This document shows positions 1 through 5,347 of a stretch of 5,347 nt of DNA, piece by piece. Source of the DNA: a virus (lineage: Duplodnaviria; Heunggongvirae; Uroviricota; Caudoviricetes). The DNA lies in the IMG/VR virus record IMGVR_UViG_2778261462_000003; one strand, written 5' to 3'. Made by a program: the position numbers and the translations under genes. The notes under the pieces are model-generated. The model made no database searches and had not been told where the DNA came from. It saw only the letters and a list, made by a program, of their open reading frames with translations. Within the stretch, counting starts at the first letter, position 1. The number at the start of each line of letters is the position of its first letter.

Positions 1-62
1 CTGCGAAATTCAGGCGAATGCTGTTTACGGGGTTTTTTACTGGTTGATACTGTTTTTGTCAT

Positions 63-93
63 GTGAGTCACCTCTGACTGAGAGTTTACTCAC
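63..93. promoter_or_regulatory. Cluster of overlapping dyad symmetries, operator-like, upstream of the first gene
   Basis: GTGAgTCAC palindrome at 63-71; AGTCA-cctc-TGACT at 66-79; GAGT-tt-ACTC at 82-91; GTGAGT (63-68) is the reverse complement of ACTCAC (88-93). Density of symmetry in a non-coding leader suggests repressor or regulator binding sites. No protein partner is identified. Confidence 0.3.
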
Positions 94-111
94 TTAGCCG
101 CGTGTCCACTA

Positions 112-139
112 TTGCTGGGTAAGATCACTTCAGTATGAT
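112..139 (+). promoter_or_regulatory. Candidate sigma70-type promoter for the rightward operon
   Basis: -35-like TTGCTG at 112-117, 16-nt spacer, -10-like TATGAT at 134-139, about 50 nt upstream of the ATG at 192. Hexamer matching by eye only. Confidence 0.2.
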
Positions 140-191
140 CCCAAAGTTTATGATGAATATCGTAAGACGAAGCGGGCGGGGCGGTTGAACA

Positions 192-713
192 ATGAAAATC
201 ACTCCTGAACAGGCTCGTGAGGCTCTGGATGCCTGGATATGTCGACCAGGAATGACACAGGAGCAGGCGACGATATTAATCACTGAAGCATTCTGGGCTT
301 TGAAAGAGCGCCCGAACATCGATGTTCAGCGTGTCACATATGAAGGTGGCGCGATTGATCAGCGAGCGCTTGGCGTTAATCGAGTGAAGATATTTGAACG
401 CTGGAAGGCTATCGACACCAGGGATAAGCGTGAAAAGTTCACGGCGCTAGTGCCTGCAATTATGGAGGCTATCCGGATTAATGATTTCAGGTTGTATCGT
501 GAAATTACTGACGGAAAAAGCATCACGTGCATGATCGCCGGGTTAAACAAAGAATATGGCGATGTGGTGGAGTCCGGACTGCTTTTTGCTGATCCTGCCG
601 TAGTGGATCGTGAAACTGACGAACTTATAGAAAAAGCAATTGCTTTCAAACTTGCGTATCGACAGCAATACCAACAAAAAGCTGGATGGAATTATGAGCC
701 TTCTTTTTGCTGA
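192..713 (+). CDS. Phage early-region protein of unknown function, tentatively YdaT-like
   Basis: 173-aa ORF from the six-frame track, ATG start. Sits immediately upstream of the replication gene and overlaps it by 20 nt. The stretch RWKAIDTRDKREKFTALVPAIMEAI resembles my recollection of the YdaT family found just upstream of replication genes in Rac-like prophages; this is memory, not a computed match. Confidence 0.55.
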   Translation: MKITPEQAREALDAWICRPGMTQEQATILITEAFWALKERPNIDVQRVTYEGGAIDQRALGVNRVKIFERWKAIDTRDKREKFTALVPAIMEAIRINDFRLYREITDGKSITCMIAGLNKEYGDVVESGLLFADPAVVDRETDELIEKAIAFKLAYRQQYQQKAGWNYEPSFC

Positions 714-1659
714 ACGCCCACTGGTTATAAACACGCAGCTGGCAATGAAAATTGGCTTAAACGAAGCCATTGTTTTGCAACAACTGCACTACTGGTTGAG
801 AGATACCAACTCCGGCATGGAATGTGATGGTGTTCGCTGGATTTATAACACAACGGAACAATGGCTGGAACAGTTCCCATTCTGGTCAGAGTCAACGTTA
901 AAGCGCGCGTTTGCAAGTCTGAAAACGCTGGGGCTTTTGCGTTGTGAAAAGCTCAATAAATCAAAGCGCGATATGACCAATTTCTACACGATCAACTATG
1001 GGAGCGAGCTTTTAGATGGTGGCAAATTGAGCGAATCCATCGGTTCAAAATGCGCCGCTCCATCAGGTCAAAATGACACGATGGAAGAGGTCAAAATGAA
1101 ACGCTCCATTGGTTCAAAACGACCCAATGTCATCGGGTCAAAATGGCCTGATGATCTTACAGAGAATACAACAGAGATTACTACAGAGAATAAAAACACT
1201 TTTCGTCCGGAAGCTTCGCAACCGGACCCGCAGACGACTGAACAGGATTTTTTAACCCGGAACTCCGACGCGGTTGTGTTTAGTGCGAAAAAACGCCAGT
1301 GGGGTAGCAGGGAGGATTTGGCGTGTGCGCAGTGGATCTGGGGGCGGATCGTGGGTCTCTACGAACAGGCAGCCAGTGATGATGGCGAGATCATGCGACC
1401 AAAAGAGCCTAACTGGACTGCCTGGGCCAATGACGTGCGCACAATGCGGATGCTGGATGGCAGAAGCCACAGACAAATTTGCGAAATGTTTGGTCGGGTT
1501 CAGCGAGATCCATTCTGGGTAAAAAACATCATGAGCCCGTCAAAGCTCCGCGAAAAATGGGACGAACTGGTCATCCGCCTGGGACGTTCACCTGTACAGC
1601 GTTGTGTTAATCATATTTCTGAACCGGATACAGAAATTCCGCCTGGTTTCAGAGGATAA
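694..1659 (+). CDS. Phage replication initiation protein (lambda O-like replisome organizer)
   Basis: The track ORF is 640-1659; I place the start at the in-frame ATG at 694 (MSLLFAERPLVINTQLAMKIGLNEAIVLQQLHYWL...), which resembles the N-terminus of phage replisome-organizer proteins as I recall them. An iteron array lies inside the gene and encodes the repeated SIGSK / VIGSK linker, the same arrangement as lambda O and ori. Starts at 640 or 745 are not excluded. Confidence 0.75.
   Translation: MSLLFAERPLVINTQLAMKIGLNEAIVLQQLHYWLRDTNSGMECDGVRWIYNTTEQWLEQFPFWSESTLKRAFASLKTLGLLRCEKLNKSKRDMTNFYTINYGSELLDGGKLSESIGSKCAAPSGQNDTMEEVKMKRSIGSKRPNVIGSKWPDDLTENTTEITTENKNTFRPEASQPDPQTTEQDFLTRNSDAVVFSAKKRQWGSREDLACAQWIWGRIVGLYEQAASDDGEIMRPKEPNWTAWANDVRTMRMLDGRSHRQICEMFGRVQRDPFWVKNIMSPSKLREKWDELVIRLGRSPVQRCVNHISEPDTEIPPGFRG
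1036..1145. repeat. Iteron array (probable phage origin of replication) inside the replication gene
   Basis: Five direct repeats, consensus about tCCATCrGkTCAAAAyG: 1036-1052 tccatcggttcaaaatg; 1059-1075 tccatcaggtcaaaatg; 1082-1098 degenerate, core aggtcaaaatg; 1105-1121 tccattggttcaaaacg; 1129-1145 gtcatcgggtcaaaatg. Repeat ends fall at 1052, 1075, 1098, 1121, 1145, i.e. spacing 23, 23, 23, 24 bp. Confidence 0.7.
1159..1189. repeat. Three ACAGAGA direct repeats at 12-bp spacing flanking the iterons (possible unwinding or accessory element of the origin)
   Basis: ACAGAGA at 1159-1165, 1171-1177 and 1183-1189, in a relatively A-rich stretch just downstream of the iterons. Lambda ori has an AT-rich region next to its iterons; the analogy is an inference. 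Confidence 0.35.
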
Positions 1660-1699
1660 GTGTTGATTTCAGGTCATGAGGTAATTTTAAGGGGGACTT

Positions 1700-2122
1700 G
1701 TGGCAAAAGTTTTTACACAAGAAGAGCGGGAAAAAATTAAATGGCAGGTGGTGGAACTCGTGCGCCAGAGCGGCCGTGAGACGTTACGGCAACTGGAAGC
1801 TAAAACAGGTGCGACTAGATATCTGATGAGCGTTCTTGCCAGAGAGCTGGTAGCCAGTGGCGATGTATACAACTCCGGCTACGGGTTATTCCCCTCTGAA
1901 CAGGCGCGTAAGGACTGGCAAAACGCCCGCAAAAAACTCTCGAGGGCAAAGGTGAAGAAACCTGCTGTGGTTGATCCGGACCTTATCTGGTCATCACCTG
2001 ACGGAGAAATACGTCGCTACGACAGTCGCCTAAACATAATCTGTCGCGAGTGCCGGAAGAGCGAAGTTATGCAGCGCATACTGGCTTTCTATCAGGGTAA
2101 TTTTCAGGACGTGGCGCAGTGA
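1700..2122 (+). CDS. Hypothetical phage protein, 140 aa
   Basis: Track ORF with GTG start at 1700, preceded by the purine-rich aagggggac (1688-1696). Its stop TGA (2120-2122) overlaps the GTG start of the next ORF in a GTGA junction, indicating translational coupling. No Walker A motif, so it is not the expected helicase loader. Function unknown. Confidence 0.55.
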   Translation: MAKVFTQEEREKIKWQVVELVRQSGRETLRQLEAKTGATRYLMSVLARELVASGDVYNSGYGLFPSEQARKDWQNARKKLSRAKVKKPAVVDPDLIWSSPDGEIRRYDSRLNIICRECRKSEVMQRILAFYQGNFQDVAQ

Positions 2123-2565
2123 GTGCACCGGCAACCATTCTTGATATGTGCTGTGGCAGCCGCATGTTCTGGTTCGATAAGTCTGACGAACGGGCGATAT
2201 TCAGCGATATCAGAAAAGAAGGATACACATTACGCAATGGGAGACGCTTGATTATCAGCCCTGACATTATCGCAGATTTTCGTGCATTATCATTTGCAGA
2301 CGCATCTTTTTCGATGGTTGTATTAGACCCTCCGCATCTTGAGAGTGTTGGTGATAACGCCTGGATGGGAAAGAAATATGGACGGCTGAATAAAGATGCC
2401 TGGCGTGATGATTCGCGACAGAGATTTAAAGAAGCCTTTCGGGTGTTGAGGCCGCACGGCGTTCTGATTTTTTAATGGAATGAAACGCAAATACCGGTAA
2501 GCCAGATTCTGGCACTGACAGACAGAAAACCTGTTATCTGTCAACGAACAGGGAAAAAACGATAA
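2119..2565 (+). pseudogene. SAM-dependent DNA (adenine) methyltransferase-like gene, disrupted by an in-frame TAA and probably 3'-truncated
   Basis: The 118-aa track ORF (2119-2475) has a glycine-rich LDMCCGSRMFWF segment and DPPH (gac cct ccg cat, about 2326-2337), fitting the (D/N/S)PP(Y/F/W/H) motif IV of amino-methyltransferases. The TAA at 2473-2475 is followed in frame by 29 more sense codons (WNETQIPVSQILALTDRKPVICQRTGKKR) to a TAA at 2563-2565. A single change AAA to TAA would restore ...VLIFKWNETQ. The total is still too short for a complete enzyme. Confidence 0.5.
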
Positions 2566-2714
2566 AACCCACTGGATTATTTTTATGAAAGAGGCATCCA
2601 GTGAGTAGATTCGTAAGGCTACAGATACGTATATCTGAATAATTAAATTCAGTTCTGTAAATAAAATTTAATCCTTAACCGGATGGATTTCTGCACCCTC
2701 AGAACATCAGGAGG

Positions 2715-2730
2715 CCGCCCGAAAGGGCGG
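2715..2730 (+). promoter_or_regulatory. GC-rich hairpin with GAAA tetraloop between a Shine-Dalgarno sequence and a start codon
   Basis: CCGCCC (2715-2720), GAAA (2721-2724), GGGCGG (2725-2730): a perfect 6-bp stem. AGGAGG sits immediately 5' at 2709-2714 and the ATG at 2738, so the linear spacing of 23 nt is too long unless the hairpin folds. Confidence 0.35.
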
Positions 2731-2737
2731 TAGTGAA

Positions 2738-2920
2738 ATGCGAAAGTTCAAAATTATTATTGAAACGGGAATAGCTGGTGGAGATTTTGAGGATGTATTC
2801 GAAGTGGACGATGACGCAACACCTGAGGAAATTCATGACGGAGCATAAGAAATTTTCTTTAACTACTGCAATTACTCATACCACGAAATAAAAGACGATG
2901 AGGAAGAACAAAGTGGCTGA
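2738..2920 (+). pseudogene. Short acidic ORF interrupted by an in-frame TAA (ORF A)
   Basis: ATG at 2738, MRKFKIIIETGIAGGDFEDVFEVDDDATPEEIHDGA, TAA at 2846-2848, then 23 in-frame sense codons (EIFFNYCNYSYHEIKDDEEEQSG) to TGA at 2918-2920. Translated by hand; below the track's length cut-off. No recognised family. Confidence 0.3.
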
Positions 2921-3089
2921 TTTTTGTTCAGCTAAATATAACATCAGTTTTGAAGAGCGGGATGAACTATTAATGGACTATGGTGAGTTACGCGGTGGAA
3001 GTGCTGCTGATGTCGAATCCTAGCGTGATGACTATGAAGCGGGAAAAACTCCGGTCGAAGCATATTGTGATGAGTGGGGCGATGAATGA
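2898..3089 (+). pseudogene. Short ORF interrupted by an in-frame TAG (ORF B), coupled to ORF C
   Basis: ATG at 2898, MRKNKVADFCSAKYNISFEERDELLMDYGELRGGSAADVES, TAG at 3021-3023, then 21 in-frame codons (RDDYEAGKTPVEAYCDEWGDE) to TGA at 3087-3089. That TGA overlaps the ATG of the next ORF (3086-3088) in an ATGA junction. Confidence 0.3.
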
Positions 3090-3373
3090 GCGAGATTAAT
3101 TATCAGGAAGGGCATGAAACGGCGGGGCAAGCAAAACCAGTGGCATGGCGATATCGCTACGTGAAAAAAGGCGTTACGGACTTTCAGGGGAAGTAGTGGT
3201 CTGGTGACTGGAAATATGTACCGAAAAAAGAGGATTGTAACGACAGGCCGAACTATCAAATTCAGGCCTTATTCACTGCCTCACCAGTCCCAGTTACATC
3301 AGAAGAACTGGTTAAAGCTGTGCACTTTTATGAACAACTAAAACGCGAAAATCCACCAACATCCGGCAACTAG
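3086..3373 (+). pseudogene. 95-codon ORF interrupted by an in-frame TAG (ORF C)
   Basis: ATG at 3086, MSEINYQEGHETAGQAKPVAWRYRYVKKGVTDFQGK, TAG at 3194-3196, then 58 in-frame codons (WSGDWKYVPKKEDCNDRPNYQIQALFTASPVPVTSEELVKAVHFYEQLKRENPPTSGN) to TAG at 3371-3373. Looks like a real small phage protein with one nonsense codon. Family not recognised. Confidence 0.35.
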
Positions 3374-3627
3374 ATTAATGGATTAACTATGTCGGTTAAA
3401 CGACCAGCCAACTGAAAAAGCGGAAACCTGATTACAGGTTGCCAGATAAGGCAATGAGCTACCTGGCGCGGAACGGACTGATAAGTATGGGGAATGTTTT
3501 ACGATGAACCTTTAGACTAAAGAGTTTGTAACGCTATGTAAGTGATTTTTTCTGGTTTAGATATTTATATGTCCGGCCAAATTGAGGTGTGTTTAAATGT
3601 AATTGCACATTGATTGTAGGAGGAATA

Positions 3628-3807
3628 ATGAAAAACGCATTGCAGTTTTTGTTTGTTGCGTTCTGGTTGTTCGCATCATGTATGCCCATCATCTTCACAG
3701 CAAGGTATATGGAAAAAGTTGATGTTTTGATATTAATATTTGGATATATAAATGCCCTTTTTTTAGGGGTGTTCATGGCGGTCATGTGCATTGAATACTG
3801 GCGGTAA
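3628..3807 (+). CDS. Small predicted membrane protein, 59 aa, two hydrophobic helices
   Basis: ATG at 3628 is preceded by AGGAGG (3619-3624), a strong Shine-Dalgarno at good spacing; the track ORF 3589-3807 is in the same frame. Product MKNALQFLFVAFWLFASCMPIIFTARYMEKVDVLILIFGYINALFLGVFMAVMCIEYWR has two hydrophobic segments. Upstream 3540-3620 is strongly AT-rich, with TGTAAT at 3598-3603 as a possible -10. Confidence 0.5.
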   Translation: MKNALQFLFVAFWLFASCMPIIFTARYMEKVDVLILIFGYINALFLGVFMAVMCIEYWR

Positions 3808-3908
3808 ATACAGCGAACTCCATTGGTTTAGTTGGATATTTACTGTGCTGGACAAAAACGGTTTGCGGGGAAATCTTAGTTAAGTAGAATGACTGCGGGT
3901 GCTTGAGG

Positions 3909-3944
3909 CTATCTGCCTCGGGCATGGACACCAACGGCAGATAG
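3909..3944. repeat. Perfect 9-bp inverted repeat separated by 18 nt
   Basis: CTATCTGCC (3909-3917) and GGCAGATAG (3936-3944). The left arm overlaps a competing 5-bp stem, GAGGC (3905-3909) with GCCTC (3915-3919), so the two structures are mutually exclusive. Confidence 0.4.
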
Positions 3945-4037
3945 AGAAAAGCCCCAGTTAACATTACGCGTCCTGCAAGACGCTTAACATTAATCTGAGG
4001 CCAATTTCATGCTAGACACATGTAGGTTAGCCTCTTA

Positions 4038-4053
4038 CGTGCCGAAAGGCACG
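4038..4053 (+). other. Second GC-rich hairpin with GAAA tetraloop
   Basis: CGTGCC (4038-4043), GAAA (4044-4047), GGCACG (4048-4053). Same architecture as the hairpin at 2715-2730. Not followed by a T-tract. Confidence 0.3.
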
Positions 4054-4084
4054 GAGAAGCAGGCTATTGTTAACACCAAGCTGT

Positions 4085-4117
4085 AATGTCCCCTTTGAAC
4101 CATTCTAAAATGTCCCC
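4085..4117. repeat. Direct repeat AATGTCCCC (two copies, 24 bp apart) just upstream of the transposase; possible IS terminal or binding site
   Basis: AATGTCCCC at 4085-4093 and 4109-4117. No inverted copy (GGGGACATT) is present in 5261-5347. Confidence 0.3.
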
Positions 4118-4140
4118 AGACAATTCTCTGGGGGATTTTT
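4114..4140 (+). terminator. Terminator-like hairpin that sequesters the transposase ribosome-binding site
   Basis: CCCCAGA (4114-4120), loop caattc, TCTGGGG (4127-4133), then gATTTTT (T-run 4136-4140). The 3' arm contains GGGGGA (4130-4135), the only Shine-Dalgarno-like sequence for the ATG at 4142. Such folding is a known way IS elements block activation by read-through transcripts. Confidence 0.4.
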
Positions 4141-4141
4141 C

Positions 4142-5260
4142 ATGATCAAAGAGACTGTTACGATGAGTCATAAGGAACTCCACCGACTTCAGATTATTCA
4201 GGAACAAGCTGCGGCACGCATTGGCATTTCTATTCGGCAGGTTAAACGTCTGGTGCAACGGTATAGAAATGAAGGGCCTTCTGGTCTGGTTTCCCACCGA
4301 CGTGGAAAGCGTCCTAATAATTCCTTTTCTACTGAATTCAGAGCAACAGTAATTTCACTCCTCAAAGGCCGTTACGCTGATTTTGGACCTACGTTTGCGT
4401 GCGAAAAATTGCGCGAGATACACGGTTTATCTTTATCCGTTGAAACTCTCAGAAAGTGGATGATAGAAGAGGGGTTATGGCGTGAACGCCGTCGTAAAAT
4501 TGCCCGTATATATCAACGCCGCATGCGACGACCATCTTACGGTGAACTGATCCAGATTGATGGCTCACCTCATGACTGGTTTGAAAATCGAGGCCCCAGA
4601 TGTACACTGATCGTTTTCATTGATGATGCCACCAGTGCGTTGATGGCGTTGCGTTTTGTGCCTGCTGAAACAACCCGGGCTTACATGGAAACCCTCCGGG
4701 GTTACCTTAATGATCATGTCGTACCGCTCGCTCTCTACTCTGATAGACACAGTATATTCAGGGTAAATAACCCAGAGCGGGAAGGTGAGCTGACCCAGTT
4801 CACTCGTGCGATAAAGACACTGGGCATCGAGCCAATCCATGCCAACAGCCCGCAGGCAAAAGGGCGGGTAGAGCGCGCCAATCAGACACTACAGGACAGG
4901 CTGGTCAAAGAAATGCGGCTTCAGAATATCAGTGATATTGAAACAGCAAATGCATGGTTGCCGACCTTTATTGAAGCCTATAACAACCGGTTCGCTACGT
5001 CGCCTCGTACTACTGATAATGCTCATCTTGATGTGCACCATTCTGAAGAGGAACTGGGTTATATCTTCAGCCTACAGGCGAAGCGCGTTCTGTCTAAAAA
5101 TCTCACTTTCCAGTACAAAAGCAGTGCGTTTCAGGTACGCAGTGAGGGCCGGGGATATCGACTTAGGCATTCGGTTGTTACTGTATGCGAGAACTTTGAC
5201 GGTGAAATTAACGTTCTGTATGAACCGCCCCGGGTTTCCTGGAGAGTGTTTTATCTGTGA
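4142..5260 (+). CDS. DDE transposase with integrase-core (rve-like) catalytic domain, IS481/ISNCY-like
   Basis: 372-aa track ORF. N-terminal helix-turn-helix-like region (GISIRQVKRLVQRYRNEGPSGLVSHRRGKRPNN), then the catalytic triad in its usual contexts: IQIDGSPHDW, LALYSDRHSIF and KGRVERANQTLQDRL. Family assignment is from memory of ISNCY/IS481-type N-termini (MS.KEL.RL.IIQ...GLV..RGK.SN). The stop at 5258-5260 may be premature if homologs are longer. Confidence 0.75.
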   Translation: MIKETVTMSHKELHRLQIIQEQAAARIGISIRQVKRLVQRYRNEGPSGLVSHRRGKRPNNSFSTEFRATVISLLKGRYADFGPTFACEKLREIHGLSLSVETLRKWMIEEGLWRERRRKIARIYQRRMRRPSYGELIQIDGSPHDWFENRGPRCTLIVFIDDATSALMALRFVPAETTRAYMETLRGYLNDHVVPLALYSDRHSIFRVNNPEREGELTQFTRAIKTLGIEPIHANSPQAKGRVERANQTLQDRLVKEMRLQNISDIETANAWLPTFIEAYNNRFATSPRTTDNAHLDVHHSEEELGYIFSLQAKRVLSKNLTFQYKSSAFQVRSEGRGYRLRHSVVTVCENFDGEINVLYEPPRVSWRVFYL

Positions 5261-5347
5261 ACTCAGGCTGCCAGATCATCGTTTCCGATGGAAGCATAAT
5301 AAGCTTTTTCTGCTTCTGCCGGAGGAGTATGGCCCAGCCTTTCCAGC

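Follow-up and report, generated by a model that had tools for sequence, protein, structure and literature searches.

Ordinary pseudogene decay very probably accounts for the run of four interrupted genes at positions 2119-3507 (+) of the window, i.e. of the whole stretch of 5,347 nt that was analysed (IMG/VR record IMGVR_UViG_2778261462_000003). This part of the window lies in the early-right region, on the dicC side, of a Qin-type lambdoid cryptic prophage in the E. coli chromosome. The four consecutive genes belonged to the early-right operon and encoded a DNA methyltransferase, a DUF7167 protein (ORF A) and two small proteins (ORFs B and C). The region carries five nonsense codons, an insertion of 1 nt, deletions of 4 nt and 90 nt, and a changed start codon. 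The genes are dead accessory genes of an old defective prophage, and their decay is routine and already known.

Location and neighbouring features of the prophage segment

Prophage DNA was found to span positions 128-5223 of the window. This interior differed from the chromosome of E. coli B379 at a single position (99.98% identity), and near-identity was also seen with many further E. coli chromosomes. PGAP annotation of the matching chromosomes gave the order dicA, dicC, YdaT-family gene, O-like gene, DUF977, methyltransferase, small ORFs, ISNCY remnant, ydfW, flxA. According to the PGAP annotation of B379, dicA and dicC are located on one side of the segment, and ydfW and flxA on the other; the same four genes were found in PhiR42_1. 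At least 80% of positions 2119-3420 was present in 377 of 5426 complete E. coli genomes, and 470 records matched this region with at least 99% identity. The haplotype was carried by natural isolates of human, frog, fish, duck and soil origin, collected on several continents.

The Qin cryptic prophage of strain K-12 (dicA-dicC-dicF-dicB, relBE-hokD, ydfW, flxA region) has the neighbours dicA, dicC, ydfW and flxA in common with the window, and both are alike in the layout of the lambdoid early region and in their degenerate, IS-ridden state. Unlike K-12 Qin, the variant in the window keeps the ydaT-like, O-like, DUF977 and methyltransferase genes and ORFs A, B and C between dicC and the hok locus; K-12 MG1655 has presumably lost most of this accessory segment. 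In the window, hok has been removed by insertion of an ISNCY element at its start codon, whereas hok adjoins relBE in K-12. Qin-type prophages have been reported in about 48% of E. coli and Shigella genomes; their content varies strongly, and they carry numerous mutations (PMC6379469). Degeneration of Qin has already been described in the literature (PMC6379469, PMC3105296), and the decay in the window is consistent with it.

Three IS elements interrupt the 5.3 kb window, one in dicC, one in hok and one in the ISNCY element itself. The two ends of the window (1-127 and 5221-5347) each consist of exactly 127 nt of IS3-family elements, one being an IS3 left end inserted in dicC and the other an IS3-family end that interrupts the gene of the ISNCY transposase. 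The strain thus carries two additional IS insertions that are absent from B379 and from the other aligned members of the clade carrying all four stops. The 127-nt ends look like a break or overlap of a short-read assembly at repeats, with k=127. The ISNCY-family transposase ORF (IS1202-like, ISEsa1-type; 4142-5260, +) contained HTH domains and a sub-threshold match to rve_3. This element was found at one site in the whole four-stop clade; it is truncated in other genomes and cut by the IS3-family element at 5223 in the window.

A complete hok/sok leader RNA was identified at 3897-4068 (+) (Rfam RF01794, 104 bits, E=1.3e-23). Homology to an intact hokD locus (L012) stops exactly at the hok start codon, at about 4067/4068, where the ISNCY/IS1202-like element begins; the ORF of the hok toxin is gone, and the antisense/leader region has been kept. 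An unannotated hydrophobic ORF of 59 aa (MKNALQFLFVAFWLF...) was located at 3628-3807 (+) in an AT-rich stretch, preceded by a strong AGGAGG ribosome-binding site. It was intact in all 72 homologous loci examined and had no match in Pfam or PHROG. It is probably a real small membrane protein (moron) missed by PGAP. The 'hornerin' ORF that some phage records show on the opposite strand (3534-3791) contained stops in many loci. Upstream of the interrupted genes, the YdaT-family, O-like and DUF977 genes (192-2122, +) are free of lesions, both in the window and in the majority of clade members.

Lesions of the four genes

An intact version of the gene string was found in related (pro)phages with 88-93% nucleotide identity; the first two products have 60 and 58 aa, and that of the ORF C family has 119-171 aa. 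Carriers include vB_EcoS-640R1, 689R5, 606R7 (with a TAG in ORF B), ArgO145, a Rac-type fragment and vB_Apl-pPE4. In functional or less decayed lambdoid (pro)phages such as vB_EcoS-689R5, ArgO145 and vB_Apl-pPE4, the DUF7167 gene is followed by the 58-aa ORF and the ORF C family with overlapping starts and stops, in the same order as in the window; unlike the window, they have sense codons at the four stop sites and encode full-length products. Searches against Pfam and PHROG gave a functional match for the methyltransferase only, and no function for ORFs A, B and C.

The initial annotation had reported four in-frame stops, namely TAA at 2473-2475 (methyltransferase), TAA at 2846-2848 (ORF A), TAG at 3021-3023 (ORF B) and TAG at 3194-3196 (ORF C). 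Translation of the window confirmed all of them, together with open frames of 29, 23 and 21 codons past the stops of the methyltransferase, ORF A and ORF B. The frame of ORF C stays open until TAG 3371-3373, in agreement with the 58 codons claimed. The ATGA overlap between the extended frame of ORF B and the start of ORF C was also recovered (ATG 3086, TGA 3087-3089). Alignment to the intact homologs placed sense codons at all four sites (AAA, AAA, TGG and CAG/CCG). The homologs aligned codon for codon throughout, and the frames downstream of the stops are thus homologous coding sequence, not chance open frames.

The methyltransferase pseudogene is located at 2119-2608 (+) and corresponds to a phage SAM-dependent DNA methyltransferase of 157 aa. 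An intact homolog matched PHROG phrog_954 'DNA methyltransferase' (E=1.7e-86). Lesions were read from an alignment with the intact O157/O111 prophage copies. The TAA at 2473-2475 replaces AAA (Lys) of the intact homologs. A GGG run at 2551-2553 stands in place of GG, at which site the intact reading is ...RTGKNDKTHWIIFMK; because this extra G shifts the frame at the C-terminus, the methyltransferase frame closes 29 codons past the stop. The homologous C-terminus (…GKNDKTHWIIFMK) runs in another frame to 2606-2608. In strains E105 and BL12, the PGAP label of this stretch was 'frameshifted; internal stop'.

ORF A (2738-2920, +) is a pseudogene of the 60-aa DUF7167 protein, and the TAA at 2846-2848 is its single lesion. 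Each of the 28 distinct intact proteins has Lys (AAA) at this site. The repaired protein matched Pfam DUF7167 (E=9.9e-14) and PHROG phrog_1997; the PGAP label was 'internal stop'. Four further replacements were found in ORF A at positions invariant or nearly so in the 28 distinct intact proteins.

ORF B (2913-3089, +) is a pseudogene of a 58-aa protein (phrog_519) with the nonsense codon TAG at 3021-3023, a site occupied by TGG (Trp) in 26 of 26 distinct intact proteins. Its native start is the codon 2913-2915, which is ATG in the homologs and GTG in the window. The ATG at 2898, which the initial annotation had used, is not the native start and owes its existence to a lineage-specific substitution at 2899. 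Eight more replacements were found at positions that do not or hardly vary among the 26 distinct intact proteins; two of them, W16R and H17D, abolish the conserved Trp-His pair. On the lineage branch, 11 non-synonymous changes stood against 4 synonymous ones in ORF B, close to the neutral ratio of about 3:1.

A change of the same Trp codon from TGG to TAG was also observed in phage vB_EcoM-606R7 (L004, 1777-1887), in an unrelated, otherwise typical intact-type background with different flanks. It looks like an independent TGG>TAG event at the site. Either the shared TAG is due to chance, TGG being prone to nonsense changes, or it hints at selection.

ORF C (3086-3507, +) is the pseudogene remnant of a gene for a protein of 171 aa (phrog_660). 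Four lesions emerged when it was aligned with intact homologs of this length (loci L019, L057, L029, L136 and L138). The first nonsense codon, TAG 3194-3196, is CAG, CCG, ATG or CTG in the intact homologs. A 90-nt in-frame deletion has its junction at 3349-3358 (about 3349/3350), between two AATCC(A/G)CCA (AATCCACCA-like) repeats. The TAG at 3371-3373 is a second nonsense codon and corresponds to CAG of the intact homologs; it had earlier been taken for the native stop, which is TGA 3505-3507. A 4-nt deletion at 3404-3405 (TGGT in the intact homologs) shifts the frame of the tail. PGAP gave equal bounds with the label 'frameshifted; internal stop'. A reading of this label as a fusion to the 3' end of another gene was rejected, the 171-aa homologs showing one gene with the 90-nt and 4-nt deletions inside.

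The A6 run at 3164-3169 in ORF C varied among loci (5, 6, 7 or 8 A) and is a hotspot at which frameshifts recur. When lengthened by 2 nt, the run yields an out-of-frame ORF of 85 aa, which is annotated as a normal gene in some phage records.

In E. coli chromosomes that were 99-100% identical to the surveyed stretch, PGAP pseudogene labels were found on the methyltransferase, ORF A and ORF C; ORF B was without any PGAP annotation in the records examined. All classes of lesions in the window match those of ordinary bacterial pseudogenes (PGAP 'internal stop', 'frameshifted'), and there is no difference in kind. The view that formerly translated genes decay as pseudogenes is thus retained from the initial annotation. 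Its proviso that decay proceeded by point mutation without frameshifts did not survive the alignment, which revealed the additional nucleotide in the methyltransferase and both deletions in ORF C; frameshifts were the very finding that the initial annotation had named as speaking against it. The description of one stop per gene fails for ORF C. On comparison with intact homologs, the 'nonsense only' pattern that looked special falls.

Age of the haplotype, continuing decay and constraint

The survey of loci comprised two pattern scans of IMG/VR plus fetched records, giving 166 loci. The TAA/TAA/TAG/TAG haplotype was present in 24 of these, and L141 carried it with the TAG of ORF B changed to TAA. 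The stops of the methyltransferase, ORF A and ORF B were restricted to one clade; TAG 3194-3196 of ORF C was distributed more widely, i.e. in 55 of 140 surveyed loci. Since 28 of these loci have intact ORFs A and B, the lesions of ORF C are older or were spread by recombination. Inactivation of ORF C across prophages was varied and included the TAG, A-run lengths of 5, 7 and 8, and several deletions.

The initial annotation had offered a short period since inactivation as one alternative. The four-stop haplotype proved to lie at the root of a clade that has diverged internally by about 1% and is present in hundreds of E. coli chromosomes, and it carries the four replacements in ORF A and the eight in ORF B at otherwise (nearly) invariant positions; a short period has no support from these findings. 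Decay continues in sister strains. Three independent indels were found in ORF C of clade members, namely -1 in the A-run 3164-3169 (7 loci), +2 at the same run (L109) and -1 at 3212 (one locus). Single-strain lesions were also found upstream, with a 22-nt deletion at 987-1008 in the O-like gene of one locus and a new TAG (CAG>TAG at 1745) in DUF977 of another. With further indels and stops in sister loci, the reading frames are therefore not preserved.

Relaxed constraint was evident in ORFs A and B from replacements at positions that are (nearly) invariant in 26-28 distinct intact proteins, and constraint on both ORFs has clearly been lost. Polymorphisms downstream of the ORF A and ORF B stops were few within the clade. 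The within-clade ratio of non-synonymous to synonymous changes was about 1:1 for dead genes and intact upstream genes alike, a figure based on too few events to show neutrality directly, confounded by recombination or ancestral polymorphism, and left out of the evidence.

Comparison of the window with the nearest intact alleles gave 89 differences, of which 35 were synonymous, 50 changed an amino acid (non-synonymous) and 4 were nonsense. The stop-creating share of random substitutions in these sequences was 3.4-6.3% at a transition/transversion weight of 2. If all 89 differences were neutral, about 4.0 stops would be expected, and 4 were observed; the expected number is an upper bound, as some of the differences arose under selection. 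There was no excess of nonsense codons over the neutral expectation, and none that was significant under stricter assumptions either. A common mutational signature, such as deamination, was sought in the four stops and was not found, the changes being A>T, A>T, G>A and C>T.

Explanations for the inactivation

The identity of the lesions, the ancestral sense codons, the wide vertical distribution and the ongoing decay in sister strains were observed directly. The cause we infer to be loss of purifying selection rather than selection for silencing. The four genes were formerly translated, their overlapping ORFs being coupled into one string; after selection had lapsed, ordinary disabling mutations would have piled up, with the three IS insertions in 5.3 kb adding to them. 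A counterpoint to decay is provided by ORFs A and B, each of which has one stop and no indel and is, by sequence, one reversion away from being intact. That these single stops are non-neutral, whether by recurrent selection for silencing in lysogens or by leaky read-through at trace level, is improbable.

Selection for silencing would mean that early accessory genes harm the lysogen, e.g. by leaky toxic small proteins or an unwanted methyltransferase, so that knock-outs are favoured. The inactivation of four adjacent genes next to three upstream genes (ydaT-like, O-like, DUF977) that are intact in the window would fit this explanation, as would the many ways in which ORF C has been knocked out across prophages and the recurrence of TGG>TAG in a second sequence background of ORF B. 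However, ORFs A and B were intact in about 130 of about 160 surveyed prophage loci, so that general counter-selection does not apply to them. The stops are as many as expected under neutrality, the upstream genes are damaged in sister strains as well, and lesions following the first stop bring no benefit and still accumulate. Silencing by selection is considered unlikely, and it is not needed to explain the pattern. Functional stops, by which slight read-through at the one stop of each of ORFs A and B would yield their products in very small, regulated amounts, appear less likely still. The single stop without indel in each ORF and the persistence of the haplotype through about 1% divergence could be read in this way, but the replacements at (nearly) invariant positions with loss of the Trp-His pair of ORF B, the degraded start of ORF B (ATG to GTG) and the destruction of neighbours in the same translationally coupled string by frameshifts and deletions argue against it. 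The stop of ORF A is moreover TAA, and at no other stop codon is termination more efficient in E. coli. For many bacterial genes, in-frame stops have been claimed to be conserved, with dN/dS below 1, and low-level read-through was proposed for them (Belinky et al. 2021, PMC7918605). The stops in the window have likewise persisted over some evolutionary time; unlike the published cases, the window shows loss of conserved residues, frameshifts and deletions, and a signal of purifying selection was not detected among the few polymorphisms.

Passage through a suppressor background, the other alternative of the initial annotation, belongs with the possibility that phage or host decodes TAA and TAG as sense codons, as recoded phages do with suppressor tRNAs, or as happens when laboratory amber/ochre mutants are propagated in suppressor strains. 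Its only favourable point is that a single ochre suppressor could read both codons. ARAGORN detected no tRNA gene within the window, and the Rfam scan of the window gave the hok/sok RNA and no recoding element. Two genes of the window normally end in TAA, namely the O-like gene, which is intact (1657-1659), and the conserved ORF of 59 aa (3805-3807). The stops replace three different amino acids (Lys, Trp, Gln/Pro), frameshifts coexist with them, and reading frames have since been lost in some clade members; the haplotype is carried by natural isolates from many hosts and countries. Stop-codon reassignment or dependence on a suppressor is the least probable of the explanations, close to negligible, and is effectively refuted as far as the window allows. 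Ordinary decay of the four accessory genes remains the preferred explanation.

The finding has little importance beyond annotation hygiene. A 'clean' run of pseudogenes with nonsense codons only can stem from reading a sequence without its homologs, and alignment then reveals the usual mixture of lesions. The true gene models follow from the intact homologs: the methyltransferase has 157 aa, the DUF7167 protein (ORF A) 60 aa, ORF B 58 aa and ORF C 171 aa. For the prophage itself, the loci form a small dated series of decay, in which ORF C is the oldest, with lesions common to several prophage types.
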